DNA of 64,000 nucleotides from Candidatus Krumholzibacteriota bacterium (GTDB lineage: Bacteria > Krumholzibacteriota > Krumholzibacteriia > JAJRXK01). The stretch covers positions 32,001 to 96,000 of the forward strand of contig CAVXTH010000005.1 in the NCBI GenBank assembly GCA_963764625.1, written 5' to 3'. Both the position numbers and the translations under genes were made by a program. The number at the start of each line of letters is the position of its first letter. Positions within the stretch are counted from its first letter, which is position 1. Shown piece after piece: positions 5,053 through 26,933 of this stretch. The notes beneath the pieces are model-generated. The model had not been told where the DNA came from. It did no database searches and worked only from the letters and a program-made list of their open reading frames with translations.

Positions 5053-7080
5053 ATGTTGCACGCATCCTCTCCGCGCGGGCGATGCCTCTTCGCCGTCGCG
5101 CTCACTTTGCTTTGTCTTCTCTCGCTGGCTTCCTCCGCGTTCGGGGTGGAGTTTGTGGTGCCGGCAGGCGTGCACGGCGAGCTTCCGGCCCAGTTCCTCG
5201 CAAAGAGCACCATGACCGGCACGGGCAAGATTGCCACCGTCAACCAGACCCACTACGACGTTCTGCACTACGATCTCACTCTCGATCCCTCCTTCGACGA
5301 TCAGACGATCCAGGGCACGGTGCGCATCGACCTCGTGAGCCTGCTCGACGGGCTCACCGATCTCGAGTTCGACCTCTTTCAGAATCTCCAGGGAACCGGC
5401 GCCCATGACGATCAGGGGAATCCGCTGAGCTTCACCCACGAGAACGACTTGCTGACCGTGCAGCTCGCGGACCCGTTGTTCGCCGGTGACAGCCTGAGCG
5501 TCACCATCGACTACGAAGGTTCGCCCCAGCCGGTAGGATTTCTGGGAATGCAGTTTCTCCAGCACGATGGCACCCCGATCCTGGCCACCCTCAGCGAGCC
5601 CTATTACTCGCGTTCGTGGTGGCCCTGCAAGGATCTCCCCGACGACAAGTCGACGGTCACTCTCACCCTACGCGCGCCGCCCGGCTACTACTGCGCGGGC
5701 AACGGCGTGCTGACCTCCCAGGAAGTGCTTCCCAGCGGAGCAGGTACACTCTTCACCTGGGAGGAGGACTACCCCATCAGCTCGTACAACGTATCGGTCG
5801 CCGTGACCAACTACGTGGGGTGGACCGAGAACTGGACGAGCCCGAGCGGCACTCCGATGGTCCTGGAGTACAGGGTGTTTCCCGAGGACCTCAACAAGGC
5901 CCTCGTCGATTTCGCGTCCACACGGGAAATGCTCGACCTCTATTCAACGCTCTTCGGCGAGTATCCGTTCGTCAACGACAAGTACGGAATGGCGGAGTTC
6001 ATTTTCGACGGCGCCATGGAACATCAGACCATGACGAGCTACGGACAATCGCTCATCACCGGCGACAACTTCTACGAGACCCTCGTGGGTCACGAGATGG
6101 CGCACCAGTGGTTCGGCAACCTGGTCACGGTCAAGGATTGGAACGAAGTATGGCTCCACGAGGGCTTCGCCACCTACGCGGAGGCGCTCTGGGTCGAACA
6201 CAAGAGCGGGTTCGAGGCGTACCACCACTTCATGCTGTCGCATTCCGCCTATCAGATCGGCTTCTACGGTCCAGTGAGTCCGCCCATTCCCCTGTTCGGC
6301 GGAACCGTCTACCAGAAAGGCGCCTGGATTCTGCACATGTTACGCCACATGATCGGGGACAACGATTTCTTCCAGGTGCTCAAGACCTACTCGGCCTCGC
6401 CCAACTTACGTTACGGCGCGGCGAGGATCTCCGACTTCATTTCGATCGCGGAATCGGTGAGCGGCACCGAATTGTCCTGGTTCTTCGACGAGTGGCTCTA
6501 TCGCATCGGTCGTCCGGAATACCGGATGTCGTGGAGAAGCGAGAACCTGGGTGAGAACTACCGGGTGGTGGTTACGATCGAGCAGATGCAGAGCGGAGAT
6601 ACCTACCGCATGCCACTGGACTTCGTGGTGGACACCGCGGCGGGGAGTCAGACTTTCGTGGTGTGGAACGACGGAGCGTACCAGGTGGCCTCGTTCATCG
6701 TTCCGACGCAACCCACCGATGTCCGCCTCGATCCCGACGACTGGGTTCTGCGCTGGAACCAGAATCCCAATATTCCCACCTCGGTGCCACAGCTCACGGC
6801 GAGTCGGCTCGCGCTTCTCCCCAACGTTCCAAATCCCTTCAATCCCTCGACGCGCTTGCGGTTCACCCTTCCCGGGGAAGTTCCGGTCCAGTTGCGCATC
6901 GTCGACATGCGAGGCCGCACCGTCCGGCGTTTCCAAACCGATTCGATGGGGGCGGGACAGCACGAACTGATTTGGAGCGGGCGCGACGACAGTGGTCAAC
7001 CGGTGGCGTCGGGCGTGTATACCGTGGTGTTGCAGGAAGCGGACCAGACCGCGGCGCAGAGAATCACTCTGGTCAAGTAG
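5053..7080 (+). CDS. Secreted M1 family aminopeptidase with C-terminal FlgD-Ig/secretion-tail domain
   Basis: Signal peptide, GAMEH, HEMAHQW-x-LHEGFATY, YQKGA; tail PNPFNP...W.G.D..G..VASGVY. Confidence 0.92.
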   Translation: MLHASSPRGRCLFAVALTLLCLLSLASSAFGVEFVVPAGVHGELPAQFLAKSTMTGTGKIATVNQTHYDVLHYDLTLDPSFDDQTIQGTVRIDLVSLLDGLTDLEFDLFQNLQGTGAHDDQGNPLSFTHENDLLTVQLADPLFAGDSLSVTIDYEGSPQPVGFLGMQFLQHDGTPILATLSEPYYSRSWWPCKDLPDDKSTVTLTLRAPPGYYCAGNGVLTSQEVLPSGAGTLFTWEEDYPISSYNVSVAVTNYVGWTENWTSPSGTPMVLEYRVFPEDLNKALVDFASTREMLDLYSTLFGEYPFVNDKYGMAEFIFDGAMEHQTMTSYGQSLITGDNFYETLVGHEMAHQWFGNLVTVKDWNEVWLHEGFATYAEALWVEHKSGFEAYHHFMLSHSAYQIGFYGPVSPPIPLFGGTVYQKGAWILHMLRHMIGDNDFFQVLKTYSASPNLRYGAARISDFISIAESVSGTELSWFFDEWLYRIGRPEYRMSWRSENLGENYRVVVTIEQMQSGDTYRMPLDFVVDTAAGSQTFVVWNDGAYQVASFIVPTQPTDVRLDPDDWVLRWNQNPNIPTSVPQLTASRLALLPNVPNPFNPSTRLRFTLPGEVPVQLRIVDMRGRTVRRFQTDSMGAGQHELIWSGRDDSGQPVASGVYTVVLQEADQTAAQRITLVK

Positions 7081-7131
7081 CGTCTCCACCCCGTACGAAT
7101 CGGGGAGGGGAGCAGGCCGGCCAACTGTGCC

Positions 7132-7841
7132 GAGTTCATGCCCCAGTGGACTCGACCAATGACCTGACTGGGGGGTGTCGGCTGAATCACTCAAGGTGTC
7201 CGTCGAACGAGGGCCCCCGCCGTCTGGCGCTCACAGGGGATCGACCCTGAAGCCTGTCCGTGCACGTCAGCCGGTCCTGCTTCCAACCCAACCGAACCGC
7301 GCGGATGAGGGGAAGGGAACTCAGGAGGCAAACGGTCCCTGAGAGGGTTTCCCCTCCCGTCCACCTCCCAGTACCCCGCCTGAACCCTTGTTTGAAAGAC
7401 GCCAGAGGCCGGAACACAGACGCGACATCAACGAGAACCGGCGCCGGGAGCACAGTCAACCAAATGCCCAGGCATTCACCCGCTGAAGAGCCGCGCGACG
7501 GGAAGTGGACTGCCTCACAACTGGCAGGCACTTCGGCCCGCTCTTCAGTCTTCACGAGTCTCTTGGGAAATTCCGGGCCTAGGGCGAGACGCAAGGCACC
7601 TGGCTGAACCGAGCAATCTCGCGACATCGCGCCTCTTGAAACTTCCAGTCCCCACTGGGACTAGACCCGCTTCGATAGACTTGGACGTCGCCGGTGACTC
7701 GGGTGAGGAATGCTCCAGTTCCGTAAGGAAGTGCGGCGAGGGTGCAAACTCGGGGTCTGGAGTCCCCTAGTCTCCGTGGAGGTAATGGTCCGTAGACGAG
7801 CCACTGGATAGACAAACAAGTCTACTTCGCCATGAACTCCT
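7132..7841 (-). ncRNA. Candidate large (~710 nt) structured non-coding RNA, class unrecognised
   Basis: Promoter directly upstream; terminal helices GAGUUCAUG/CAUGAACUC (7839-7831 with 7140-7132) and CCAGUGG/CCACUGG (7807-7801 with 7149-7143); many internal stems whose G.U pairs work only on the minus strand; GAAA tetraloop; no credible ORF. Confidence 0.7.
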
Positions 7842-7847
7842 GTCGAA

Positions 7848-7876
7848 AAGTTACGGAAGCCATTCGGGGACGTCAA
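7848..7876 (-). promoter_or_regulatory. sigma70-type promoter of the large RNA
   Basis: TTGACG (7876-7871), 17-nt spacer, TAACTT (7853-7848); predicted +1 at about 7841/7840, the first base of the terminal helix. Confidence 0.7.
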
Positions 7877-7885
7877 CCCCCCCAC

Positions 7886-8749
7886 TCAACTCTGGCCGAG
7901 ATGGGTGGTAAACCACTCGGAACTCAAAGCCAGCGCGCGGTCCAGGGCGTCGGTCGTGCCCGCGAAGGGGTGAATCGCGTTCCAGGTGTGTCCGGTGCCC
8001 GGGATCATCTCCAGGTGGCAGCCGTCCGCCTCGCCGCGCCCCGCGCGGAGCGTCTGGGCATTCTGGGGATCGACCGCCAGATCATTCTCCGCCTGCAGAA
8101 TGAGGTGGGCCGCCTTCATTTCCTTGACCCCAGCGGTGAGGTCATAGCGCCGCGCGTTCTCGCGCGCATCTTCCACCAGAGTGAACCCCACCGCCATGCG
8201 CTGCTTCGTACGAGAATTCAGGAACTCCAGCTTGCCTTCCTCTTCCCAGTCGCGGAGCTGACGCTCGGTGTAGTGCAAGGCCTGGGAAATTCCGTTCCAG
8301 GTGACGAGAGCGGCGATCGCCGGATCCTCCCTCGCGACGACGATGGCGCTCAGGGCTCCCCGGCTGTGCGCGAGGAGACCGACACCAAGCCTACGGGTTT
8401 CTTCGGGAAGAGGAGACTCTCTTCGCAACCAGCTGAGGACATGCTCGAGATCCTCGATCTCCCGGGCATAGGTGTTGCGCTCGAAAAGATCCAGCCGATC
8501 GAACTCGCCGGGCCTCTCTCCGACTCCATTCAACGAGAAATCGAAGCAGACCGTGACGAATCCTCTGGTGGCCAAGGTGCGCCCGAGGTAGGGGAAGAAC
8601 CCCCAGTTCTTGAAACCCTTGAAGCCGTGCACGATTACGACCAGACCGAGGGCTTGCTCCTCGGCCGGCCGGCGGAGATCCAGGCGCAAGGGAAGTCCGT
8701 CCCTGCACTGAAGTTGGTGCTGGCTCTCTCTCAGGTTCATCCCTACCAT
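7886..8749 (-). CDS. Alpha/beta hydrolase (S9/dienelactone hydrolase-like)
   Basis: HGFKGFKNWG, nucleophile elbow AHSRG, catalytic D and GHTW; start is 8749 or 8740. Confidence 0.85.
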   Translation of the reverse strand: MVGMNLRESQHQLQCRDGLPLRLDLRRPAEEQALGLVVIVHGFKGFKNWGFFPYLGRTLATRGFVTVCFDFSLNGVGERPGEFDRLDLFERNTYAREIEDLEHVLSWLRRESPLPEETRRLGVGLLAHSRGALSAIVVAREDPAIAALVTWNGISQALHYTERQLRDWEEEGKLEFLNSRTKQRMAVGFTLVEDARENARRYDLTAGVKEMKAAHLILQAENDLAVDPQNAQTLRAGRGEADGCHLEMIPGTGHTWNAIHPFAGTTDALDRALALSSEWFTTHLGQS

Positions 8750-8798
8750 CCCCTTCGCCGATTTTCTTGAGCTTTCATCTCGTTCGGAAAGTGGTCGC

Positions 8799-9479
8799 AT
8801 GCGCGCGAATTCGCCAATCGAGGCGGCGGTTTTCGACCTGGACGGAACCCTGGTGGATTCGCGTCAGGCCATCGTCCATGCGGTCGCCGAAGGCGTTCGC
8901 CGCGTCTTTGAGAATCACGCGATCGACGATCACGCGCCCGACGAAACCGCGATCATGGATGCCATGGGCCTTCCCCCGGTGGAATACTACCGCAGAATCC
9001 TTCCTTCGCACCTGGCCCATCTGGCCGGCGAGGTCAAGGAGAGCGCCACCGCCGCCGAAATCGAAGTTCTGGCGCGGGGCGAGGGGAAGCTGTACCCGAA
9101 AGTACGCGAGACCCTGCAACAGCTGCGCGCGCGGGGCGTTCGCCTCGCGATCGTGAGCAACGCGCAGGAGCCGTATTTCCGCGCGTGTATACGCTACTTG
9201 AAGCTCTCGGATCTGGTGGAACACACCGAGTGTCACGAGGAACTTCCCGTGGGTGTCGGCGAAGGCAAGCCCGTGCTCTTGCGGCGGGCCCTCACAGAAT
9301 TGGGCGTGGAGGCGGCGCGCAGTGTGATGGTCGGAGACCGCAGGGAAGACATCGCCGCGGGCCAAGAACTGGGGTGCGCGACCGTCGGTTTGAGCTATGG
9401 CTTCGCGGGAGAGGGGGAACTCGAGGACGCCGATCAGGTGTACGCCGAATTCGAGCGCCTCCTGGAACTGGCGCGCTGA
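8799..9479 (+). CDS. HAD-superfamily hydrolase (phosphoglycolate phosphatase-like)
   Basis: FDLDGTL, SN, KP and VGDRREDI motifs. Confidence 0.88.
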   Translation: MRANSPIEAAVFDLDGTLVDSRQAIVHAVAEGVRRVFENHAIDDHAPDETAIMDAMGLPPVEYYRRILPSHLAHLAGEVKESATAAEIEVLARGEGKLYPKVRETLQQLRARGVRLAIVSNAQEPYFRACIRYLKLSDLVEHTECHEELPVGVGEGKPVLLRRALTELGVEAARSVMVGDRREDIAAGQELGCATVGLSYGFAGEGELEDADQVYAEFERLLELAR

Positions 9480-9567
9480 TTCCGCCTCGCCACAAGCGCA
9501 CGCCGAGTACCCTTCCGACACAAGCCCACCCCCCACTGCGCCTTTTGGAGAATGGCGCCGAGGTCCC

Positions 9568-10783
9568 TCAGGCCACTCCCAGCTGCGCCCGCAGCGTCTG
9601 CAGTCCTTGGGCCGCGTCTCCCTCGAAACTACCCTGCGCTCGCTGCGCCTGACCACCGCCCTTGCCTCCCAGGGGCTTCAGAGGCGCGGCTCAGAATCTG
9701 TCCGCAGTGCAGAGACTCCAGCCCGACTCCACGCGAGAGGATCACCCGCGAGCGCTCGCCCTGCGGCGCCACTAAGAGTATGAGCAGATCGTTTTCCTCC
9801 CGCAGGGCGTTCGCAACTTCCGTCGCAGCGCCGGCAAGGGAGGGCGGAAGCACCCGGGCCAGCACCCGCGCGGAAACTCCCTCCAGCACGCAGTCCTGCG
9901 CTTCTGTGAGCCAGCGCTGGGCGCTCATCGCCGCCAGCTGGGCAGCCAGTTCCGCCGTTTGCTTGGCGTTGGTCTTGAGATCCTCGCGCTGGCGTTCGAC
10001 CAACGCTTCCAACTCCGCGTCACCGGTGGTGAGAAGGCGCCCCAGGCGGCCCACGAGACGGTCGCGTGAACGCCGGTAGTGAAGAGCGCGACGGCCGCAG
10101 AGAAAGTGCAGCCGGATTCCCCCACGCACTTTCTCGCGCCGCTGGATTGCAATGAGACCAATCTCCGCCGTGTTCGCGCAGTGGGTTCCCCCGCAGGCGT
10201 TGCGATCGAAGCCATCGATCTCGATGACGCGAAGCTCGGTTTGCCCCGGCGGGATCTTGCCGCGATCGACACTGTCCACGTCTTTCGGATCACGGAACCG
10301 CACCTGCACCGGCCGGGCCTCTTGGATCACCTGGTTCGCCGCGTCCTCGACGCGGTCGAGGGTCGCGTAGTCGAGGTCCTCCACTTCCAAGTCCAGCGTG
10401 TTCCCCGATTCCCCCAGACGCGAGCTGGTGGTGGAAAGACCCAGTTCGTCTTCGAAAATGCGTGAGAGAACGTGCTGGCCGGTGTGCTGCTGCCGGTGAT
10501 CCGCCCGGCGGAGTTCGTCCACCACACCCTCGACCTGGGCGCCCACCGCGAGCTCCGATTCTCCGGTGACGAAGTGGATGATCTCTCCCTTTTCTTCGTG
10601 CACATCCACCACTTGGTCTCCGTTCAGGGTTCCGCGATCGGCCATCTGTCCCCCGCTCTCCGGGTAGAAACAGCTGACGTCGAGACGCACGCGGCGCGGC
10701 CCTTCGCCCTCGGACTCGACGGCGGTGATCCGGGCCTGAAACCGGCATCGGTAGGCGTCGCGGTAGTAGAGGCGTTCGGTCAC
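9568..10783 (-). CDS. AlaX-like alanyl-tRNA editing protein with DHHA1 domain (frameshifted near 9680)
   Basis: LYYRDAY, FYPESGGQMADRG, QQHTGQH, CGGTH. The DHHA1 motif LGGKGGG...AQG continues in a shifted frame to TGA at 9570-9568. Confidence 0.85.
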
Positions 10784-11016
10784 GGCAGAAGCTCCCTCCT
10801 GGAAAATGCCCGCCCGCCGGAACACGGGTGGGTTCTCTTCCGCCTCTCATCATACGCCAGGCGCCCCGGCTCTCAAATACCCCTGGATCCCCCGGGGGAA
10901 AGGTCCTGGGTTGGGGGCCGCAAACGCGGCCCAGCGCGCTTTCCGGCTTGATTTGGGTGCAGCTCTTGCATAGACTGAAGGCAAGCGTGGAGAAAGAGGT
11001 CTTGGGCTCGCTTTTT

Positions 11017-11047
11017 ATTGATATTGATTTGCAATTTCAATTAAAAT
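11017..11047 (+). promoter_or_regulatory. Fur box-like operator overlapping the feoAB promoter
   Basis: AT-rich inverted repeat ATTGATATTG-N5-CAATTTCAAT (13/19 match to GATAATGATAATCATTATC at 11020-11038); TTGATA-N18-TAAAAT. Confidence 0.7.
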
Positions 11048-11123
11048 GAGCTAGCTTGGGATTCACTGGGGAAGTCGTTGGGGGGACTCGCTCCCCTGTC
11101 GCACGCTGGAGGAAACGCTCACG

Positions 11124-11345
11124 ATGACTCTCGATCAGCTCAAACCAGGTGAACGCGGTGTAATCACCGGCTGGACCGAGCAGGAGCCCCCGAGCCGTCT
11201 GCTCGAAATGGGTCTTCTGCAGGGCACGCTGCTGGAGATCATTCGCCTGGCCCCCTTGGGCGACCCCATCGACATTCGGATTCGCGGCTATCACCTCTCT
11301 CTGCGCAAGCACGAGGCTGGACTCGTCGAAGTTCAGCCCCTCTGA
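11124..11345 (+). CDS. feoA: Ferrous iron transport protein A
   Basis: RLLEMGL..G, APLGDPI, LSLRKHEA; GGAGG RBS. Confidence 0.95.
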   Translation: MTLDQLKPGERGVITGWTEQEPPSRLLEMGLLQGTLLEIIRLAPLGDPIDIRIRGYHLSLRKHEAGLVEVQPL

Positions 11346-11352
11346 GATCTCC

Positions 11353-13506
11353 ATGCGCTGGACCACCGGCGGAAGTTCCGCCCCCACCCTTTCCGAGCAT
11401 GCGAAGGCTGTCCGACTCGTTGCGCTGGCCGGAAACCCCAACGTGGGAAAGACCACCGTCTTCAATCAGCTCACGGGTTTACGTCAGAAAGTCGGCAACT
11501 ACCCCGGCGTCACAGTGGAGCGCAAGATCGGCCAGGTCACCACCGAGGGTGAGCTCGCGGTACAGCTCGTCGACGTTCCCGGGACCTACAGTTTGAATCC
11601 GCGCTCGATGGACGAGGAGATCGCCTACCGGGTGTTGGTGGGCGAAATGCAGGGACAGGAACGCCCCGATCTCATCGTCTGCGTGGTCGATGCGGGAAAT
11701 CTCGAGCGGAACCTCTATTTGACGAGCCAGGTCCTCGATCTGGGAATTCCCACCATCATCGCCCTCAACATGACCGACTCCTCGGAGCGCGAAGGCGTTT
11801 TCGTGGACGCTTCGGCTCTGTCCCGCGAGCTCGGGGTCCCGGTTTTTCCCCTGGCCGCGAGCAGCGGCAGGGGAATCGACACGCTGCGGCGCAGCCTCGC
11901 GGGGGAATTACCTCAAGTTCCACCCCGGCGCTGGAAGGCGCCGCCGGCCCTGCAGAAAGAGGTCGACCATCTGGCCGATTGTCTGGCCGAGGACCTGCCC
12001 AGTCTCTCTCCTTCGGTACGCTTCGCCGACGCCCTGCGAGCCCTGGCGAACACGACGGCTCCCCGCTTCGAAAGCCATCATTCCGAGCGCTTCTGGAACG
12101 AGGTCGAAGCCTCACGCCAGAGCTTGCGCGCGCAGGGGACGCTGTACGAACAAGAGGAGATCATCGCGCGCTACCAGTGGATCACTCCTTTGGCCGCGCG
12201 GGTCATCCAACTCAGACAAGAGGAAAATTACCGCAGCGTCAGCGAGAGAATCGACTCCATCCTGACCCATCGCTTCCTCGGTCCGGCCTTTTTCTTGGCC
12301 GTCCTGCTGGTGGTGTTTCAAGCGGTGTTCAGCTGGGCCGCGCCCTTCATGAATTGGATCCAAGACGGAATGGGCTGGCTGTCGACTGTGGCCAGTGCCC
12401 ATTTGCCGGCCGGTCTCTTACGCGGTTTGATCGTCGACGGAGTGCTCTCGGGAGTGGGCGGTGTGCTCGTCTTCCTTCCACAGATCCTCCTCCTCTTCTT
12501 CTTCCTGGGGCTTCTGGAAGACACCGGATACATGGCCCGCGTCGCATTCATCATGGACCGTCCCATGCGCAAGGTGGGCCTCAGCGGTCGCTCGGTCGTT
12601 CCGCTGATTTCCTCCTACGCCTGTGCGATCCCGGGGATCATGGCCACCCGCACCATGGACAGCCAGCGCGACCGTCTGGTCACCATGATGGTCGCTCCGT
12701 TCATGACCTGTTCGGCGCGGCTGCCGGTCTACGCCCTGGTCATTTCCGCCTTCGTCCCCGCGGCCGGCCACTTCGGATTCATCAGCTACCAGGCCCTTGC
12801 CCTCATGAGCTTGTACTTGATGGGTACGGGAATGGCCGTGCTCGCCGCCGCGTTTCTGCGCCATCGGATCATCAAGGGCAACGCCTCCACCTTCGTGATG
12901 GAGCTTCCCCCCTACCATAGGCCCCGACTGCGCGACGTGGCCTGGCGCATGTCCGAACGGGCCAAGATCTTTCTCACCCGCGCGGGAACGATCATTCTGG
13001 CCATGAGCATCGTACTCTGGTTCCTGGCCGCTTTCCCGCAGGCCCCCACCGACCCGGCGGGGGGTCAGATCGATTCGGGCACCCAGCTCGCCAACTCCTA
13101 CATGGGCCGAGCCGGACATCTCTGGGAGCCCATGCTGAAACCGCTCGGCTTTGACTGGAAGATCGGGGTGGCGCTACTCTCGTCCTTCGCGGCCCGGGAG
13201 GTCGTGGTCAGCGCGCTCGGCACCATCTACAGCGTGGGCGATACTTCAGGCGACGTCTCCACTCTGGAAAAGCGTCTGGTGAACGACACCTATCCCGATG
13301 GGACGCGCGTGTGGTCGCCGCTGGTCGCGGCGAGCCTGCTCATGTTCTTCGTACTCGCCTGCCAGTGCATGTCGACCCTCGCGGTGGTGAAACGGGAGAC
13401 GAATTCCTGGCGATGGCCGCTCTTCATGTGGACCTACATGTTCGCCCTAGCCTGGATCGCGTCCTTCACGGTCTACCAGGGTGGCCTTCTCTTGGGATGG
13501 GGGTGA
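11353..13506 (+). CDS. feoB: Ferrous iron transporter B
   Basis: GNPNVGKT, GNYPGVTVE, DVPGTYS, NMTD, CSARLP, SFAAREVVV. Confidence 0.97.
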   Translation: MRWTTGGSSAPTLSEHAKAVRLVALAGNPNVGKTTVFNQLTGLRQKVGNYPGVTVERKIGQVTTEGELAVQLVDVPGTYSLNPRSMDEEIAYRVLVGEMQGQERPDLIVCVVDAGNLERNLYLTSQVLDLGIPTIIALNMTDSSEREGVFVDASALSRELGVPVFPLAASSGRGIDTLRRSLAGELPQVPPRRWKAPPALQKEVDHLADCLAEDLPSLSPSVRFADALRALANTTAPRFESHHSERFWNEVEASRQSLRAQGTLYEQEEIIARYQWITPLAARVIQLRQEENYRSVSERIDSILTHRFLGPAFFLAVLLVVFQAVFSWAAPFMNWIQDGMGWLSTVASAHLPAGLLRGLIVDGVLSGVGGVLVFLPQILLLFFFLGLLEDTGYMARVAFIMDRPMRKVGLSGRSVVPLISSYACAIPGIMATRTMDSQRDRLVTMMVAPFMTCSARLPVYALVISAFVPAAGHFGFISYQALALMSLYLMGTGMAVLAAAFLRHRIIKGNASTFVMELPPYHRPRLRDVAWRMSERAKIFLTRAGTIILAMSIVLWFLAAFPQAPTDPAGGQIDSGTQLANSYMGRAGHLWEPMLKPLGFDWKIGVALLSSFAAREVVVSALGTIYSVGDTSGDVSTLEKRLVNDTYPDGTRVWSPLVAASLLMFFVLACQCMSTLAVVKRETNSWRWPLFMWTYMFALAWIASFTVYQGGLLLGWG

Positions 13507-13709
13507 GCTCGGTGAACATCCTGCAATTCGTGGTCGTGATCGGGCTCGTGATTCTCGCCGCGGTCTATGCCGCGCGCCATGTCTTGCGCCAGTTCAATAC
13601 GGCCGATCAGGACTTCAGTGAGAGTGGAGGCGCGTGTTCGAACTGTAGTGCGAACGCGCTCGCGCGGAAGGCCAAGCGGATCGAGCCCTCACACCGCAAT
13701 TCGAGGTAG
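13503..13709 (+). CDS. FeoB-associated Cys-rich small membrane protein
   Basis: GTGA overlap with the feoB stop; N-terminal TM helix followed by GGACSNC. Confidence 0.7.
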   Translation: MSSVNILQFVVVIGLVILAAVYAARHVLRQFNTADQDFSESGGACSNCSANALARKAKRIEPSHRNSR

Positions 13710-14840
13710 GGCTGGCGAGATTCGCGCCAGCACTTCGTAGTGGATCGTCCCTGCCCATTCCGCGAGCGTCTCCGCCGTGAGCTTCTCGCCCTCTTGCGTT
13801 CCCAGAAGGACTGCCTCGTCCCCGAGTTCCACTTGGGAAAGATGGGTAACGTCCACCATCATCAAGTTCATGCAGATGCGACCGCGCACCGCGCACCGCT
13901 TTCCGTGCAACAGCACGTGGGCGCGACCGGACATGCTTCGCGAATAGCCATCCGCGTATCCCACCGGGAGAAGCGCCAGGCGAGTGTCGACCTCCGCCTT
14001 GTCGGTGCATCCGTAGCCGATGTACGAACCGGCCGGAACCGTTTTGAGTTGAGCGACCCGCACTTTCCAGCTGAGAGCGGGCCCGATGCTAAGCTCCTCG
14101 TCCGAACCCCCTTTTCGGGCCGAAACCAGAGTCGCCGAGCTCGGCCAGTAGCCGTAGGCCGAAATGCCGATGCGTGCGAGATCCATGTAGCGCGAGGGGA
14201 AGAGGATCGCGGCCGCGCTGCAACTCATGTGAATGGCCTGAGGACGCAGGCCCGACCGCGAGATTTGTTCCAACACCTCGTCGAAGACCCGAGATTGCTC
14301 TTCCGCATAGCTGTGATCGGTCGTGTCCTCGATGTTGGCGTAATGGCTGTGCACGCCGACCAACTCGAGTGCGGGTTCGCTCTTGATCGCCGCGAGACAG
14401 CTCGCCAGCTCCTCGCCGGTCACTCCCTGTCGCCAGGTTCCCGTCTCCACCTTGAGGTGGATCTTGGCCGGATAGCCGCTCTTCAAGGCGACCTGGGCCA
14501 GATCGCGCAAGCGCGGCGCATCGTACACCGTCAGGTCGAAGCCCGCCTCGATCGCCGCCTGCATTTCATCATCACCTAGAGGCCCCAGGATCAGGATACG
14601 CCGGCCGAGCGCCAACTCGGCCACGAGTTTGGCCTCGGTGAACGAATGGACGCAGAACCAGGAGGCCCCCCCCGCGGCAAACGCCCGCGCCGCGAGCTGA
14701 AGACCGTGGCCGTACGCATTGCTCTTCACCACCGGGGCGAGCGCCGTGTTCTGGGGCAGGTGTTTCGCGAAGGCCCGGAGATTTTGCGTCAAGACCTCGG
14801 TCTCGACTTCAACCCATTGCAAAGCCGCGATCGCGGACAT
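13689..14840 (-). CDS. alr: Alanine racemase
   Basis: VVKSNAYGHG, IGYG, GYADG, GRICMN, TIHYEV. Confidence 0.96.
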   Translation of the reverse strand: MSAIAALQWVEVETEVLTQNLRAFAKHLPQNTALAPVVKSNAYGHGLQLAARAFAAGGASWFCVHSFTEAKLVAELALGRRILILGPLGDDEMQAAIEAGFDLTVYDAPRLRDLAQVALKSGYPAKIHLKVETGTWRQGVTGEELASCLAAIKSEPALELVGVHSHYANIEDTTDHSYAEEQSRVFDEVLEQISRSGLRPQAIHMSCSAAAILFPSRYMDLARIGISAYGYWPSSATLVSARKGGSDEELSIGPALSWKVRVAQLKTVPAGSYIGYGCTDKAEVDTRLALLPVGYADGYSRSMSGRAHVLLHGKRCAVRGRICMNLMMVDVTHLSQVELGDEAVLLGTQEGEKLTAETLAEWAGTIHYEVLARISPALPRIAV

Positions 14841-14866
14841 TCTCGTCTCCTCGCCGCCGAGCCGGC

Positions 14867-15859
14867 TCAGTTTTCCGGGGGTGCCACACCTTCGAGATGA
14901 CCGTAGAGCTCGTGCCGGTGCCGCAGGAGTTTGAATCCCAATTCCCTGGCCAGCTTCTCCTGAAGCTCCTCGATCTTGTCGTTGCGGAACTCGATGATCC
15001 TCCCGCTCCTCTGACAGATCATGTGGTCGTGGTGCTCCAGCCCGCGGGTCTCGTAGCGGGTGCGACCGCCCTCGAAACTCCGGCTGGCGGCAAGACCCGA
15101 ATCGACCAGCAGTTTCAGGGTGCGGTACACGGTGGCGTATCCGATCTGCGGATCGCTCCGCTTCACTTCCGCGAGCAACTCGTCGACGCTGACGTGGCCC
15201 TCGAGCTTCGCGAAGATCTCCACGATAAGATCGCGTTGTCGGGTCGATTTCAAATGTTCCTGGGACAGGTACTTGCGGAAGGCGGTGGGAAGATTCTCGG
15301 CGGACCGGCGCTCGTGGGAAGCGGGCTGGGAGGTCTTGGAGCTGAAGGGTCGTCCAGCGAGTTTGTCCTGGCCGTCTTTGGAATTGAAGCGGCAGGGACG
15401 GCCGGCGAAGAAATCCTCACAGACTCCGTAGAGTTCGTGGCAGTGATTCTCGATGTGAAACCCGGCCGTCTTCGCCACCTCTTCCTGTAGCGCTTCCACT
15501 TCTGGCAGCTTGAACTCGATGACGAGTCCGCATTCCGCACAGATGAGATGGTCGTGATGTTCCTGGCCGCGAACCTCGTAGCGGCTCTCTCCGTCTCCGA
15601 AATGCCGCACGCTGGCCAGGCCCGAATCGACCAAGAGCTTCAGGGTGCGGTAGACCGTGGCGTAGCCGATGCCCTTTTCCTTGCGGGTAACCTCGCGCAG
15701 CAAGTCCTCGACACTCGCGTGCCCCTCCATGCGCGCGAACACGCCCACGATGGCCTCGCGCTGGCGCGTGCACTTCAGGTTTTCCCTCAGGAGATAGGCG
15801 CGGAACTCGTCGACCAGATCGGAAGAACCCCGCGCGTCAGGAGACTTTGTCTCTACCAT
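14867..15859 (-). CDS. Fur-family regulator with two tandem Fur domains
   Basis: Two copies of TRQR...H.SV..L...IGYATVYRTLKLLVDSGLA...HHDH.IC; ATG 15859 with GGAGG RBS. Confidence 0.9.
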   Translation of the reverse strand: MVETKSPDARGSSDLVDEFRAYLLRENLKCTRQREAIVGVFARMEGHASVEDLLREVTRKEKGIGYATVYRTLKLLVDSGLASVRHFGDGESRYEVRGQEHHDHLICAECGLVIEFKLPEVEALQEEVAKTAGFHIENHCHELYGVCEDFFAGRPCRFNSKDGQDKLAGRPFSSKTSQPASHERRSAENLPTAFRKYLSQEHLKSTRQRDLIVEIFAKLEGHVSVDELLAEVKRSDPQIGYATVYRTLKLLVDSGLAASRSFEGGRTRYETRGLEHHDHMICQRSGRIIEFRNDKIEELQEKLARELGFKLLRHRHELYGHLEGVAPPEN

Positions 15860-15906
15860 GGTCAAGCCTCCCCAACCGGGGAAATTCGAGGGCGCCAGCT
15901 CGATCT

Positions 15907-15956
15907 TGAAAATGACTATCAATGCCGAAACTAGGCGAGCCCCCGGGGGCTGTCAA
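15907..15956 (-). promoter_or_regulatory. sigma70 promoter and Fur box upstream of the tandem Fur gene
   Basis: TTGACA (15956-15951)-N17-TAGTTT; 7-1-7 box TGAAAAT-G-ACTATCA at 15907-15921 (12/14 match to TGATAAT-N-ATTATCA). Confidence 0.7.
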
Positions 15957-17464
15957 GCAGTCGCGGAGCTGGGCGCGTCCAGGGAGGTGATCAGCGCTTC
16001 CTGTCCGTCGTACTGGATCAGGATCGGCTTTTCCTGGTAAACGCTCTCGATGCAGACCGGCTTTCCCCACAGGGCGAAGAGGTTCGCCAGGGTGGCTTTG
16101 GCGTATTCGATGTCCAGCGGAATTCCCTCGTAGGTGTGCTTGAGAAAGAGGATCCCGTGCCCCTTGTGATCGGCGTCGACAACGGTGATCAGGGGGTGAC
16201 CCCCGTTAGTGAGTTGGGCCAGTAGCTGCTTCTTGATCTTGGCGAACTCCCGGCTCGCGATGACGTACTGATCCTTTTCCAGATCATACCGATAGATGAA
16301 CATGCGGTGTTCCTGGGCGAACTCCTCGGTGAGGAAGGTGTCGATGAAAGTGACGTCGTTGTGCACCGTACGCACTTCGAAGATCTTCTCGCGTCCCTTC
16401 CCGATTCCGGTATCCCAGTTCATGCGTTCCTTGTAGTTCTCGCAGTCCTCGTACGCGTTCCCGAAGCGGCCCTTGTTCCACCTCTCCTCGATGTCGCGGT
16501 AGAGATAGAGGCCCAGCTTGTAGGGATTGACCGAGTCGTTTCCTCCCATGGTGCCGCTGTGATGGTCGGCGAAATCCACGATCTCCGAGTCGTTGAGGAC
16601 TTTCTCCGTCATGAGTTTGGAGTGCCAATAGCTGGCCCAGCCCTCGTTCATGATCTTGGTCTGCCACTGTGGGGCGAAGTAGTAGGATTCGTCGCGGATC
16701 ATACCCAGGATATCCCGTTGCCAACGGGTCAACGGCGCGTGCTGCATGAGGAAGAGCAGAACATCGCGCTCCGGGCTTTCGGGAAACTTCTTGGGTTGCC
16801 GCTGCTTTTCTTCGCGCTTGCGTCTTTCCCTTTCTTCCTGCACCGCCGCGGTCGCGTTGATGAAGCTCTCCATGTACGACTTGGCTTCGAAACGCACGCG
16901 AGGCGCCGGCTCCGGTTCAACCGGAGCGGTCTCGTCCACCGACGTCCGTTTCTTGCTTCGAAACACGGAGTGAACGTCGATCAGACGCTCGAGGGATACA
17001 CACCGGTCGAGAAACTGCTCGACCTCGTCGAGTCCGAAGCGTGCGATGTAACGACGGATGCGCGAGGCGTGATTCGCCATGGTGTCGATCATTTGACGAT
17101 CGGTCTGTGAAAACCATACATTGTTCTTGAAGAAATCGCAGTGACCGTACACGTGACACATTACGAGTTTCTGGTCGACGAGATGGTTCTCCTTCATCAG
17201 GTAGGCGTAGCAGGGGTCGTTGTTGATGACCATTTCGTAGATCTTCGAGAGTCCGTACGCGTAGCCTTTGCTGAGCTGGTCGAAACTCATGCCATGCGAC
17301 CAATGGGGATAGCGGACGGGGAAACCGCCGTAGCTGGCCACTTCGTTCAGTTGGCGATAGTCGATGACTTCGAAGTTTAGCTCGAAGAAATCCAGGCCGT
17401 ACTCGCGCGCGTACGTCTCGATCTTCACCTTCCAGCCCCTCAGATCCTCGCTCAACTCCGACAT
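15953..17464 (-). CDS. spoVR: SpoVR/YcgB family protein
   Basis: RYPHWS.G, IYEMVINNDPC, HVYGHCDFFKNN, TKIMNEGWASYWH, NPYKLG. Confidence 0.95.
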   Translation of the reverse strand: MSELSEDLRGWKVKIETYAREYGLDFFELNFEVIDYRQLNEVASYGGFPVRYPHWSHGMSFDQLSKGYAYGLSKIYEMVINNDPCYAYLMKENHLVDQKLVMCHVYGHCDFFKNNVWFSQTDRQMIDTMANHASRIRRYIARFGLDEVEQFLDRCVSLERLIDVHSVFRSKKRTSVDETAPVEPEPAPRVRFEAKSYMESFINATAAVQEERERRKREEKQRQPKKFPESPERDVLLFLMQHAPLTRWQRDILGMIRDESYYFAPQWQTKIMNEGWASYWHSKLMTEKVLNDSEIVDFADHHSGTMGGNDSVNPYKLGLYLYRDIEERWNKGRFGNAYEDCENYKERMNWDTGIGKGREKIFEVRTVHNDVTFIDTFLTEEFAQEHRMFIYRYDLEKDQYVIASREFAKIKKQLLAQLTNGGHPLITVVDADHKGHGILFLKHTYEGIPLDIEYAKATLANLFALWGKPVCIESVYQEKPILIQYDGQEALITSLDAPSSATA

Positions 17465-17467
17465 GCC

Positions 17468-18574
17468 CTACCTACCCTTCCCGAGGAAGTCTTTGATGCT
17501 GTCTGGAATGTCGTCCTTGGTGTCGATCTGACTGGTGACCAGGTTCTCCGCGCCCTCGAGCTGCTTGTCCAATTCGCGTTTGAACTGGCCCGAACCGTAG
17601 GTGGATGTCACCTGGCCATAGGAGAATTGATTGACGGCCGGCAAGAGGGTCTCTTTCAAGAGTGCCAGACAACGTTCGGTATCGCCTCCGCCCCAGTTGT
17701 CCCCGTCGGAAAAATGGAAAGGATAGATATTCCATTCGTGCGGCGGATAATTTTCGTCGATGATTTCCGCGCACAAATTGTAAGCGCTGCTGATCTTGGT
17801 GCCACCGCTCTCGCGGGTGTGGAAGAAGGTGTGGCGATCGACTTCGTGGGCCACCGCGTCATGGATCACAAAGCGCGTCTGCAGGTTGGCGTATTGGCTC
17901 TTGAGCCAGGTGTCGATCCAGAAGGCCTCGATCCGCACCGTCTCCTTTTGCTCGTCCCCCATCGACCCCGAGACGTCCATCATGTAGATGATGACGGCGT
18001 TGGAGGCCGGCTGCTGCACCTTCACCGGAGCCCGGTAGCGCATGTCGCGACGAATGGGAATGACCATCGGGTCGAGCGGGTCGTAGGCTCCGGTCTGGAG
18101 CTGGCGCTTGAGCGCCTCCCGATAGCTGCGCTTGAAGTGGCGTAAGCCCTGGGGCCCCACCAACTGGATGCTGCTGTAGCGAGAGCGGGCCGAGCTGATC
18201 TGTTGCTTGCCCCTGGGCTCGATGCGGGGGAGCTCGAGTTCCTCTCCCATGAGCTTCGCCAACTCGTCGATGGAGAGCTCGACCTCCAGGACGTGTTCTC
18301 CCGGGGCGTCGCCGGCGGGACCGGCAGCGTCCCCTTCCTGGCCGGGGGCGGGCTGGCCTTCAGCGCCTTCGCCGAAGCCGATTCCCCCCTGCTCCTTGGC
18401 TCCAAAACGAAAGCGGGGAATTTCGATGGTGGGCACGGGGATGGACACGAGGTCCTTCCCCTTGCGTCCGATCATCTCGCCGTGCGAGATGTAGCGGCGC
18501 AGGTTCTCCTTGATCCGGCCACGGACGATATCCTGGAAACGGTGGAGATCACGATCGATGCGGCTGATCTGCAT
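17468..18574 (-). CDS. yeaH: YeaH/YhbH (DUF444) vWA-like protein
   Basis: [30 protein letters not shown]; lies between prkA and spoVR. Confidence 0.93.
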
Positions 18575-18588
18575 CTCGGCCGCCTTCG

Positions 18589-20652
<2,064 letters not shown>

Positions 20653-20706
20653 CGTCTTCTCCCGCAATTGGGGCCTCAAACTTGGGGGATCGTCCTACAT
20701 GCAGGC

Positions 20707-20722
20707 TGCAATCTCCATACCA
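20707..20722 (-). promoter_or_regulatory. sigma54 -24/-12 promoter of prkA-yeaH-spoVR
   Basis: TGGTATGGAGATTGCA (GG-N10-GC); E. coli yeaGH is known to be sigma54/NtrC-dependent. Confidence 0.65.
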
Positions 20723-20884
20723 AGCTCGAATCTGATGTCAACTGGTGTGATGACAAGCCGTTGCGCTCGCAGGGGTGCAAGGTCATGGAGTGGAACTCGC
20801 CGCTGACATCCTCAACTTAGCCATGGTGGGCGGGGGCCGTCAAGCAAACCGAAGCACGCTGTGCGCGGCCGAAACGGCCCGAGC

Positions 20885-21661
20885 TCAGGGAAGAATCTCC
20901 AGGCGCACCGCTTCGGAGTCACTGGCCGCCACGGTCCACAGGCCCTTCCCATCCCAGCTGAGACTCACGAATTCTCCCGGCCGGAAGAACGCGTCCCGGG
21001 CGATCACCGCGTCTCTACGGCCAGTGGTTCCAGTGAGCCGGTAGAGCCGGCCGGTGCTGGCGTCGGCCGACCAGAAGTGGTAGCCGTCGTAGGCCAGGCC
21101 GGTGGGATAAAACGCGGGTGCGGCGACTTTCTTCGACACTCGCCCTTCCTCGGTGTCCACCCGCAAGATATTGCGCGCATCACAGTCGACCACCCAGAGG
21201 TAGAGGCCGTCGTAGGCCATCCCGCCCGGATGATGACCGGGTGAAGGAAGGGTTAAGAGAACCGAGCCATCCGCGGGCGAAATCTGGTAGATCCCGCTGC
21301 TAGCTCCGAGAAGACTGCCGCTGCTCCACCAGTTCTCGCCGTCAGAGGCCAGGCCGGTTTCGAATTCGTTGGATTGCGCGGCCAGCACGGAGAGTTCCCG
21401 TGAGGAAGCGCGCCATCGCATGAGCCTGACCTGAAAACTGGAATCCGGCGCGGAGAGACCGGTGTTGCCCGTGGCCAGGAGCACGACCGCGTCCTTCTGG
21501 ACCAGGAACCCCCGCACCCCATCGGTCGGCAGCGGCATCCGCGCGTCCACCACGGCGCCGATCTCCGGTAGGGATTGGAGATCCACCGCATGGGCCGAAG
21601 AGGGCAGGCCACTCAGGAGCAGGAATACAGCGGCAAGAACGCGCGGACAGCTGGATTTCAC
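20885..21661 (-). CDS. Secreted beta-propeller protein (YncE/glutaminyl cyclase-like repeats)
   Basis: Signal peptide from GTG 21661 (VKSSCPRVLAAVFLLL...AHA); repeats P.G(L/M)AYDG..(L/F)W..D. Confidence 0.7.
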   Translation of the reverse strand: MKSSCPRVLAAVFLLLSGLPSSAHAVDLQSLPEIGAVVDARMPLPTDGVRGFLVQKDAVVLLATGNTGLSAPDSSFQVRLMRWRASSRELSVLAAQSNEFETGLASDGENWWSSGSLLGASSGIYQISPADGSVLLTLPSPGHHPGGMAYDGLYLWVVDCDARNILRVDTEEGRVSKKVAAPAFYPTGLAYDGYHFWSADASTGRLYRLTGTTGRRDAVIARDAFFRPGEFVSLSWDGKGLWTVAASDSEAVRLEILP

Positions 21662-21774
21662 GATGGACTTCGACCTCTGGCTCTCCGGTTGCACCCAGGA
21701 TTGGACTTCGCCGCGGATGGCTAACACGCTAGCGAAGAAGCGCGAGAGTGTCGACGCGATTCTCCCACCGAAAG

Positions 21775-21810
21775 GCAAACGAACGCCGGGTCCCTGAAAG
21801 GGACCCGGCG
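21775..21810 (-). terminator. Intrinsic terminator of the sRNA
   Basis: CGCCGGGTCCC-TTTCA-GGGACCCGGCG followed by TTCGTTT. Confidence 0.7.
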
Positions 21811-21949
21811 CACGGTAGCACAACGATTATCGCGATCCAACGGATGGCAGCGTTTCGTCCCTTACTGGCGTAGCGCTGAAAGCCCCTCGTATTCCTGACA
21901 CACCTCCAGCCGCCTCCGCCAGTAAGTAGACTTGTTTGCCTATCCGAAA
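21775..21949 (-). ncRNA. Candidate sigma54-dependent sRNA (~170 nt)
   Basis: Bounded by a sigma54 promoter and an 11-bp terminator hairpin; stems CUUACUGGCG/CGCCAGUAAG and GCUGGAGG/CUUUCAGC (two G.U); 5' 22 nt complementary to the large RNA. Confidence 0.7.
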
Positions 21950-21960
21950 ACATTCTAATG

Positions 21961-21976
21961 GCATATTGCGTGCCAG
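21961..21976 (-). promoter_or_regulatory. sigma54 -24/-12 promoter
   Basis: CTGGCACGCAATATGC versus consensus YTGGCACG-N4-TTGC; +1 at about 21949; AT-rich upstream region. Confidence 0.7.
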
Positions 21977-22132
21977 CAATTCGAGCGGATTCCGGAGAAA
22001 ACACTCGGAGCTAATCTATTGTCATGAAACTAGTTAGAACCACAGCCGGGGAGAGGGTCCCGCCCTACAAAAAACTAAACCATCAAGCAATTTAATGTTC
22101 CAGAAAATAATTTTACTTTTTGGGGAAAACTC

Positions 22133-22495
22133 TCAGAGCTCGGAGTGCCCTGTCTCGTCGGAGCTGGTCGCGGATTCGAACTCGACGGTGTCGGCGACTT
22201 CACCGTCATAGAGCAAAGTGTCAGGATCGCCCTTGAGAACGATACGCACCCGCGTGGACTGGTTCTTCTCCAGAGCAGCGATGACGCCCTTGATGAGATC
22301 GGTGCCCGACTGGACCGTGAGATCGATCGGCTCGCTGGTGTCGACGACCAGGACCTGAGTCGCCGAGGGCAGCTCGTGGGTTCCGGCCTCGAGGGTGGTC
22401 TTGATGGCCCATTTCGCCTCAGCCGGCCGCAAAGTCAGGGACGTGAAGAGTGCGACGAAGAGGAGAAGAACGGCAAGAATGCTGGCGCGGAACAT
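22133..22495 (-). CDS. Small secreted hypothetical protein
   Basis: Signal peptide ending AEA; GGAGG RBS; beta-rich mature part. Confidence 0.7.
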   Translation of the reverse strand: MFRASILAVLLLFVALFTSLTLRPAEAKWAIKTTLEAGTHELPSATQVLVVDTSEPIDLTVQSGTDLIKGVIAALEKNQSTRVRIVLKGDPDTLLYDGEVADTVEFESATSSDETGHSEL

Positions 22496-22610
22496 GAAAA
22501 TCCCTCCCCCGTAGGGTCCTCAGCAGCGTGGCCCCTAGTGTTCATCTACTATACGGCTTGTGGGCCGCCGAGCGAAACCCTTTTCTGGCTCGTTTTCGGC
22601 CAATGCACCC

Positions 22611-26933
<4,323 letters not shown>

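Follow-up and report, generated by a model that had tools for sequence, protein, structure and literature searches.

What is the significance of two 22-nucleotide (nt) segments, 14 kb apart in one bacterial genome, that are nearly perfect complements of each other? The question arises in Candidatus Krumholzibacteriota, an uncultured lineage from salt-marsh and sediment, within a 64,000-nt stretch of one genome (the window; C5:32001-96000 of G000, an assembly of nine contigs and 3,566,213 bases that is 96% complete). The original prediction placed each segment at the start of a minus-strand non-coding transcript, a small RNA (sRNA) behind a sigma54 promoter at copy B and a large structured RNA at copy A, and proposed that these two RNAs pair. 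Follow-up of the locus identifies two RNA genes, their structures, their co-occurrence and their co-evolving complementarity, and finds the large RNA in RNA libraries. The sequence comparisons make it probable that the two RNAs base-pair in trans in vivo. All evidence is computational, and the 5' ends are predicted.

Complementarity of two distant sites

The inverted match is real. Copy A (7806-7827, with the plus-strand letters first reported) differs from the reverse complement of copy B (21924-21945) at one position (21/22), and two matches at three or fewer mismatches were found in none of 100 dinucleotide shuffles of the window. The whole assembly contains only these two copies of the 22-mer at four or fewer mismatches, and the core TAGAC-N6-GTCTA occurs once, at copy A. 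Many genomic copies in which only the palindromic arms are conserved had been named in advance as the mark of a DNA operator; with just two copies in the assembly that pattern is absent, and a multi-copy DNA operator or repeat is ruled out. When the first 24 nt of the sRNA were scanned thermodynamically against both genome strands (1655 seeded candidate sites), copy A scored -36.8 kcal/mol, 11 kcal/mol ahead of the next-best trans site (-25.4). Eight next-best seed sites inspected in G000 lie mostly inside coding regions. A 9-10-nt seed match, GCGCCUAUCC, at C9:849163 (minus strand) directly precedes GAGGAG, which resembles a Shine-Dalgarno sequence, and a possible TTG start; this site is a candidate messenger RNA (mRNA) target of the sRNA.

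Compensatory covariation between the 22-mers, the check that the original prediction proposed, is evident across the ten genomes of the family (G000 to G009). When sRNA nt 1-17 are set against the site without gaps, 153 of 170 alignment cells pair, and double changes occur at five duplex positions: position 5 (A-U to C-G in G004), position 11 (to G-C in G007), position 13 (A-U, G.U and G-C), position 14 (to G-C in G001 and in G008/9), and position 16 (U-A in G000, C-G in seven genomes). Mean duplex energy is -29.6 kcal/mol for cognate pairs versus -24.8 kcal/mol for non-cognate pairs, and the cognate target is the best of ten in five of the ten genomes. After removal of G009, which duplicates G008, the summed cognate energy of -263.9 compares with a permuted mean of -226.7 and is reached by 18 of 100,000 permutations. 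Random genomic segments of equal length rarely match the seed duplex energy (0-2 of 250 in each of the seven genomes tested), and full-length cofolding includes the seed-site duplex in the minimum free energy (MFE) structure of the dimer in six of nine genomes.

Duplex length varies from 13 to 22 nt among genomes, and the element conserved across the family is a linear, 5'-proximal seed of 13-17 nt. Both 22-mers can form a hairpin of 5 base pairs (bp) with a 6-nt loop, which is present in the MFE structure of the large RNA. The kissing hairpin-hairpin geometry envisaged originally is available only in G000, G002 and G003; the other seven genomes keep only GGC/GCC of the arms, or nothing.

The two RNA genes and their distribution

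Conserved promoter elements and structural covariation at copy B bear out the predicted minus-strand non-coding RNA behind a sigma54 promoter. Copy B begins 14 nt beyond a TGGCAC-N5-TGC element on the minus strand. By itself, the sigma54 pattern does not exceed chance expectation in the window (13 matches versus 21.9 expected). Ahead of the sRNA, GG, GC and the spacing between them are conserved in 10/10 family genomes and 10/10 metagenome loci, in all of which TGGC-N7/8-TGC lies 14-16 nt ahead of GGAU, and the genome encodes rpoN (Sigma54_DBD, 217.9 bits). The sRNA alignment (A1, folded with RNAalifold) displays a conserved 5' stretch, GGAUAGGCA(A/G)ACA(A/G)GCC, a long hairpin (P2) that carries an invariant 20-nt apical loop, an invariant GAUCGCG in the linker, and a terminator helix (helix 3) in which 9 of 15 pairs have changes on both sides. 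Over the whole of A1, 16 of 44 pairs are changed on both sides, and 96.6% of cells are paired, compared with 88.8% in column shuffles (none of 500 as high) and 37-51% after sliding of the partners. Two invariant U.G pairs, 48-63 (10/10) and 46-65 (9/10), would be A.C on the opposite strand and therefore fix the sRNA strand as minus. The U-tract behind the terminator hairpin is weak, and a simple terminator scan does not call the hairpin. Searches of the window with Rfam 15 (4227 models) gave no sRNA match at gathering scores and only chance-level matches at relaxed thresholds.

Copy A lies in an 805-nt gap, free of Pfam-supported open reading frames (ORFs), between two convergent genes, an M1 peptidase ending at 7080 (plus strand) and an alpha/beta hydrolase ending at 7886 (minus strand). 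The promoter pattern TTGAC-N17-TAnnnT is kept in 10/10 genomes at a fixed distance from the site (69-72 nt from site end to the first base of the -35 box); in the window it falls below the threshold of a consensus scan. The whole large-RNA region is 79% identical in G002 and G003, and conservation of its last ~180 nt extends to G001 and G004. Almost every indel between relatives is of 1 nt, substitutions are spread evenly over the three phases (59/51/50, 53/53/48, 17/25/24 and 50/45/61), and open frames vary from genome to genome, so the large RNA is non-coding. A protein-coding reading of 7081-7885 was rejected on this pattern and on the lack of any Pfam family for ORFs 7187-7627 (minus), 7260-7607 (plus) and 6406-7194 (minus). 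Immediately after copy A begins a plus-strand ORF (7832-8770), a shadow of the alpha/beta-hydrolase gene (7886-8800, minus strand).

Folding also favors the minus strand, with an energy of -324.5 kcal/mol (z score -1.76; 0/20 shuffles as good) versus -293.3 kcal/mol for the plus strand of the same stretch (z score -0.84; 4/20 shuffles as good). An alignment of the 3' domain (A2) contains 47 predicted pairs, 13 of which have changes on both sides, a count reached by 0/500 shuffles; slide and shuffle controls for both A1 and A2 fall far below the observed covariation. Invariant U.G or G.U pairs in A2, 17-176 (7/7) and 28-164 (6/7), would be mismatches on the opposite strand. Taken together, the conserved promoter, the non-coding pattern and the structural covariation support the minus-strand transcript that was predicted at copy A. 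Its conserved domain of 177-184 nt is accompanied by further conserved blocks well beyond the sRNA sites, and this extra conserved structure says that the large RNA does more than bind the sRNA.

Attempts to place the large RNA in a known class were negative. It matches none of the 4227 Rfam models, and neither a function nor a partner protein nor a family match was found. A housekeeping or otherwise known RNA was rejected: there was no Rfam hit at gathering scores, no tRNA or tmRNA gene, and RNase P and 6S RNA are on another contig. Relaxed thresholds (searches up to E 5) returned only fragments of Pospi_RY, IRES_Bag1 and sbcD with E values of 0.09-3.2. A sponge of the CsrB/RsmZ type was likewise rejected, with 18 GGA in 778 nt versus 16.4 +/- 4.7 in random 780-nt genomic segments, and the motifs A.GGA, AGGA and CA.GGA.G are not enriched in the large RNA either. 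Near its 5' end (7821-7840, minus strand), AGGAG is followed 3 nt on by a three-codon frame (start, two codons, UAG); the frame overlaps the start of the 22-mer in G000, G002 and G003 only and is not conserved in the other seven genomes.

A second potential contact emerges when the reverse-complemented sRNA is locally aligned to the large RNA. In the 3' domain, the conserved segment CCCUCGU...CUGACAC matches the apical loop of the sRNA, over aligned lengths of 40 nt in G004, 34 in G001, 37 in G005, 23 in G006 and 24 in G002, and the covariance model of the sRNA (R1) gave an independent hit on the strand antisense to the 3' domain of G004. This patch is the loop's best site in the whole large RNA in five of seven genomes, and its segments sit in the predicted apical loops of both consensus structures; the segment of the window falls in unpaired columns 83-116 of the A2 consensus. 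Compared with 250 random genomic segments, the contact is significant in three of the seven genomes (reached by none in G001, G004 and G006) and weak in G002 (6/250) and G005 (12/250). In neither orientation do the two patches run collinear with the sRNA, and an inverted duplication of the simple kind therefore fails to account for them. There is an apparent trade-off across G000-G006, suggestive only, in which a 22-nt seed duplex goes with a background-level loop match (G000, G003) and a 14-17-nt duplex with the strongest loop matches (G001, G004, G006). The invariant linker of the sRNA (21830-21839, minus strand) includes the palindrome UCGCGA, and a conserved block of the large RNA (7611-7632, minus strand) reads GUCGCGAGAU in G000, G002, G003 and G005 and CUCGCGAGAU in G006. 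Palindrome and block could form a third contact or a dimerization motif; six-base palindromes are common at the G+C content of this genome.

The co-occurrence in relatives that pairing partners should show was also found. Both genes (the sRNA; the large-RNA promoter and 5' site) are present in 10/10 genomes of one Krumholzibacteriia family, 14 kb apart in the window and 7-21 kb apart in relatives; wherever the two could be placed on one contig, they share its strand. BLAST with the stretch starting at copy B detects it in 10 of 61 related genomes, all family members, and in 0 of 51 genomes from other families. Model R1 finds one copy in each of ten genomes of the order (10/10) and, over 151 genomes of the class, the ten family genomes and one marginal hit. 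The latter (G149:C192:1693-1811, L045; 23.8 bits, E 0.0086) belongs to another family of the class. A model of the 3' domain (R2) hits seven of the ten family genomes and none of the other 141 genomes of the class sample (7/151 in all), and 6/151 in a phylum sample in which G002 is not included. Searches of G007-G009, which represent genus g4, gave nothing convincing with R2 at lax filters (best E 1.2).

Where sequence similarity was lower, the large-RNA locus was located by pattern. A search for the seed complement recovers TTGAC-N17-TAnnnT followed by the site in G005 and G006, on the contig and strand of the sRNA and 21 and 16 kb away; both genomes carry the 3' domain. In G007, G008 and G009, the promoter, the site and shared internal blocks were found by a degenerate pattern and by BLAST with the G007 sequence. 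The locus is on the contig and strand of the sRNA in G007 and G008, the two loci of G009 are on different contigs, and all three genomes are without the 3' domain. An exact scan for the loop core adds six stretches in species genomes, titled Candidatus Krumholzibacteriia/-ota or "uncultured bacterium," and ten loci in metagenome contigs. All 16 stretches hold the full sRNA (one of them its cut 5' part), and the ten metagenome copies have the same seed at the start and the same promoter type. No large-RNA site or 3' domain was present within the available sequence of the metagenome contigs, which thus contribute sRNA and promoter data and no further pairs.

Evidence for the large RNA in RNA libraries comes from public runs. 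Twenty runs list words of the large-RNA stretch, six of them RNA libraries, and four RNA libraries were examined by contigs. The large RNA is present in all four, with contigs that span nearly its whole length (7111-7817): as one 719-nt contig on 7111-7802 in X5, as contigs at 7024-7330 and 7368-7817 in X4, at 7327-7593 in X10, and at 7124-7274 and 7426-7595 in X8. Because the runs were picked for holding the large RNA, its abundance relative to other genes cannot be read from depth. Directly ahead of 7111, an X5 contig has non-matching letters, presumably the tail of a sequencing adapter. They hint, at most weakly, that the RNA ends at 7111, a position immediately beyond the helix that closes the 3' domain; an X4 contig continues to 7024. 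The region of the sRNA (21452-21985) has no contig in the four runs, in which several neighboring bins are also empty and uncovered parts are uninformative. A 170-nt RNA may have been lost in library preparation, or its promoter may have been off.

Features of the two-RNA locus and its surroundings (window coordinates)
Feature	Position	Strand	Details
sigma70-like promoter of the large RNA	7848-7876	-	TTGACG-N17-TAACTT; predicted start ~7841
Large non-coding RNA	7111-7841	-	~730 nt (460-950 nt in relatives)
sRNA-complementary site (copy A)	7806-7827	-	~+15 to +36 of the large RNA
Structured 3' domain of the large RNA	7109-7285	-	closed by a 16-pair helix
Segment in 3'-domain apical loop, complementary to sRNA P2 loop	7196-7213	-	weak in G000: 7 + 5 bp
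sigma54-type (-24/-12) promoter of the sRNA	21960-21975	-	TGGCAC-N5-TGC; predicted start ~21947-21950
Structured sRNA	21774-21945	-	172 nt as modelled; 5' seed, long P2 hairpin, linker, terminator hairpin
sRNA seed (copy B)	21924-21945	-	family-conserved part nt 1-17 = 21929-21945
P2 apical loop region (sRNA nt 42-65)	21881-21904	-	nearly invariant; complementary to large-RNA 3'-domain loop
Terminator-like G+C-rich hairpin at sRNA end	21780-21814	-	~120 nt ahead of the next gene
prkA - DUF444 (yeaH-like) - spoVR operon	15953-20722	-	Pfam
Activator of 1440 amino acids, TPR + Sigma54_activat AAA+ + HTH_8	22611-26933	-	Pfam

Probable pairing, its possible consequences and other explanations

If the two RNAs pair, the overall mode of action would most likely be stoichiometric antagonism (mutual titration or co-degradation). 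The activator encoded next door would switch on the sRNA, and probably prkA too, under some stress, the signal being probably part of a starvation or stress response shared with the prkA-yeaH-spoVR operon. The 5'-proximal seed of the sRNA (13-22 nt) would anneal to the site ~15-36 nt into the sigma70-driven large RNA, and a loop-loop contact with the 3' domain would assist in most genera. Being made steadily, the large RNA would soak up the sRNA until the sigma54 signal is strong, which would create a threshold. At strong signal, the 14-22 bp duplex would inactivate or remove both partners, probably via RNase III, and the large RNA would be cleared. Control may equally run in the other direction, with the large RNA as a buffer for the sRNA. 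The 96%-complete genome has RNase III, and no Hfq was found in it; combined with a duplex of 14-22 bp, this leads one to expect Hfq-independent annealing and a coupled decay of the RNase III type. That RNase III does in fact degrade both RNAs together is proposed tentatively, with rather less than even confidence.

Several observations weigh against pairing. The dimer MFE structure is without the seed duplex in three of nine genomes. Independent covarying events are few (~5-6), and the ten genomes are kin. The second contact is at background in G000 (133/250) and G003 (66/250) and is missing in genus g4. The sRNA loop keeps its invariant sequence there despite the lack of a complement in the large RNA; the sRNA must therefore have at least one other partner. 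A hexamer pair called by the consensus scan, TCGACA-16-TAGACT at 7819-7846 (minus strand), has its -10 box inside the 22-mer and, if used, would start the RNA inside the complementary site; the pair is not conserved in relatives. Strand and ends cannot be read from RNA-library contigs, and such a library may contain DNA. Moreover, the X5 and X4 contigs end at 7802 and 7817, so the contigs do not show the whole 22-mer within the transcript.

The pattern of imperfect pairs bears on pairing as well. In the original prediction, orientation was argued from the single difference between the copies, which becomes a G.U pair when read from the minus strand. The argument holds for that difference and not in general: positions 1-17 in the ten genomes hold 11 G.U cells versus 7 A.C cells, from ~5 events each, which likewise counts against an RNA duplex. 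Since G.U and A.C are about equally frequent, covariation alone cannot separate an RNA duplex from two DNA sites of one protein. Both 22-mers might then be operators of one repressor just downstream of both promoters, their co-variation reflecting shared protein specificity. Equal numbers of G.U-type and A.C-type differences are what DNA would give, both sites are within ~40 bp downstream of a promoter, and G000, G002 and G003 have the inverted repeat TAGAC-N6-GTCTA in copy A and an imperfect version in copy B. However, most genomes keep only GGC/GCC of the palindrome, whereas the asymmetric GGAUAGGC part is conserved, and the genome contains just two sites. A repressor would also leave the complementarity between the sRNA loop and the 3' domain unexplained, and parallel changes at ~5 positions would need repeated shifts of its specificity, all of which makes two operators highly unlikely.

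Another possibility is that the sRNA is merely the terminated 5' leader of the gene downstream, which encodes a secreted protein of 260-310 amino acids (20885-21665 in the window), and that the complementarity is a by-product. The same gene stands behind the sRNA in 14/16 loci examined, the promoter scan calls no promoter between the terminator and this gene, and the hairpin is followed by the weak U-tract noted above. Yet complementarity to a distant RNA is kept via compensatory changes in ten genomes, and the terminator hairpin itself is kept by nine covarying pairs. A mere leader is accordingly hard to credit, and a leader-derived sRNA could still act in trans.

Pairing itself has a sub-case: the large RNA would have a function of its own, as a protein-binding or catalytic RNA, and the sRNA would be a dedicated trigger that remodels or destroys it by clamping its 5' end and its 3'-domain loop. 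The conserved domain of 177-184 nt and the blocks far beyond the sRNA sites would fit such a function, both best-conserved single-stranded parts of the sRNA match the large RNA, and G000 has no mRNA site of comparable strength, the next hits being mostly within coding regions. In contrast, no function, partner protein or family match is at hand for the large RNA, and genus g4 is missing the 3' domain and the second site although the sRNA loop is invariant there. The trigger is on balance somewhat unlikely. A more specific version, in which the large RNA is a machine or protein-binding scaffold of a new class and clamping of its 5' end and 3'-domain loop together remodels or destroys it under a PrkA-type starvation program, is unlikely; if true, it would represent RNA-on-RNA allosteric control of a large non-coding RNA.

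Known systems and genomic setting

Transcription of the qrr genes depends on sigma54 and LuxO. The present pair would work like an sRNA with a dedicated RNA sponge, and Qrr/QrrX appears to be the nearest known case: in both, a sigma54-promoter sRNA controlled through an enhancer-binding protein has a dedicated, separate non-coding RNA as its match. The statement in the original prediction that no system with this layout had been described does not stand, as dedicated RNA sponges of sRNAs are known, an example being QrrX of Vibrio cholerae, a separately transcribed non-coding RNA that base-pairs with the sRNAs Qrr1-4 and inactivates them, and that is small, Hfq-associated, switched on by a LysR regulator and turned over as a duplex mainly by RNase E (PMC9732341). 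Unlike QrrX, the partner RNA here is 460-950 nt long with a conserved structured domain and a constitutive-looking promoter. The pair further differs from Qrr/QrrX in that no Hfq was found, in having two contact sites in seven genomes, and in the absence of any sequence relation (no Rfam hit).

GlmY and GlmZ have sigma54 promoters and neighboring glrK/glrR genes. The likeness to the present pair is that one RNA would control the fate of another and that the sRNA gene adjoins a sigma54 regulator. In enterobacteria, these two homologous non-coding RNAs form a hierarchy that is reported to communicate via the protein RapZ and not by pairing (PMC4152352). The RNAs here are complementary, not similar. 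Campylobacter jejuni is not known to have Hfq. Its CJnc190 and CJnc180 are reported to be an sRNA and an RNA antagonist of extended complementarity, cis-encoded and overlapping, with RNase III acting on the duplex (PMC8687705). The present RNAs also constitute an sRNA and a complementary putative antagonist, but are encoded 7-21 kb apart. The plasmid pairs RNAI/RNAII and CopA/CopT are cis-antisense RNAs of full complementarity that control replication, with kissing loops as the first contact. Complementary hairpin loops are shared with them by the 22-mers in three genomes, and possibly by the second site. The present loci, in contrast, are chromosomal and apart from each other, what is conserved is a linear 5' seed, and complementarity covers 13-22 nt plus a second patch.

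Large bacterial non-coding RNAs such as OLE, GOLLD and ROOL, whose function is unknown, resemble the large RNA in having several hundred nt, conserved structure and a narrow lineage, and in being found in RNA libraries; unlike them, it matches none of the Rfam models. To our knowledge, no RNA of this type has a dedicated pairing sRNA. The pair lies outside described families: Rfam offers no match, a GGA sponge signature is absent, and the layout is not cis-antisense. Novelty lies in two RNA families, in how large and structured the partner is, in a design with two sites, in the occurrence in a candidate phylum without Hfq, and in the connection with a sigma54 activator and PrkA module. A search of open papers, subscription journals aside, retrieved none on non-coding RNAs of Krumholzibacteriota. 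The sole paper found that contains both "Krumholzibacteri" and "sRNA" is reported to concern CsrA variation.

Regulatory RNA biology is nearly unknown outside a few cultured phyla, and sequence alone here yields two RNA families in uncultured Krumholzibacteriota, along with the promoters, the likely activator and a co-evolving putative interaction of the two. If the pairing is true, the principle of sRNA and anti-sRNA reaches an Hfq-less lineage, an anti-sRNA partner can be several hundred nt long with a structured domain of its own, and a sigma54 activator together with the widespread, poorly understood PrkA-YeaH-SpoVR module is tied to an RNA circuit. Since salt-marsh RNA libraries contain the large RNA, the predictions are testable on existing environmental data and with in vitro transcripts.

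The gene for the 1440-amino-acid activator adjoins the sRNA in 15/16 loci examined, and its product is likely the cognate enhancer-binding protein of the sRNA promoter. The N-terminal ~600 amino acids of this protein have no Pfam match. The prkA operon has its own sigma54-type promoter, TGGTAY-N5-TTGCA at 20707-20722, a motif present in 6/8 loci examined. Given these conserved neighbors (the activator, the secreted proteins and prkA-DUF444-spoVR), the sRNA looks like a separate unit within an apparent sigma54/PrkA stress locus. In most relatives, a gene for a 120-amino-acid protein with a signal peptide and no Pfam family (22133-22495, minus strand) lies between the activator and the sRNA; contigs from 4/4 RNA libraries cover it (22068-22497). 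Farther along, a 351-amino-acid protein (14867-15922, minus strand) contains two FUR-family stretches, and this tandem Fur gene adjoins alanine racemase and lies opposite feoB (11353-13506).

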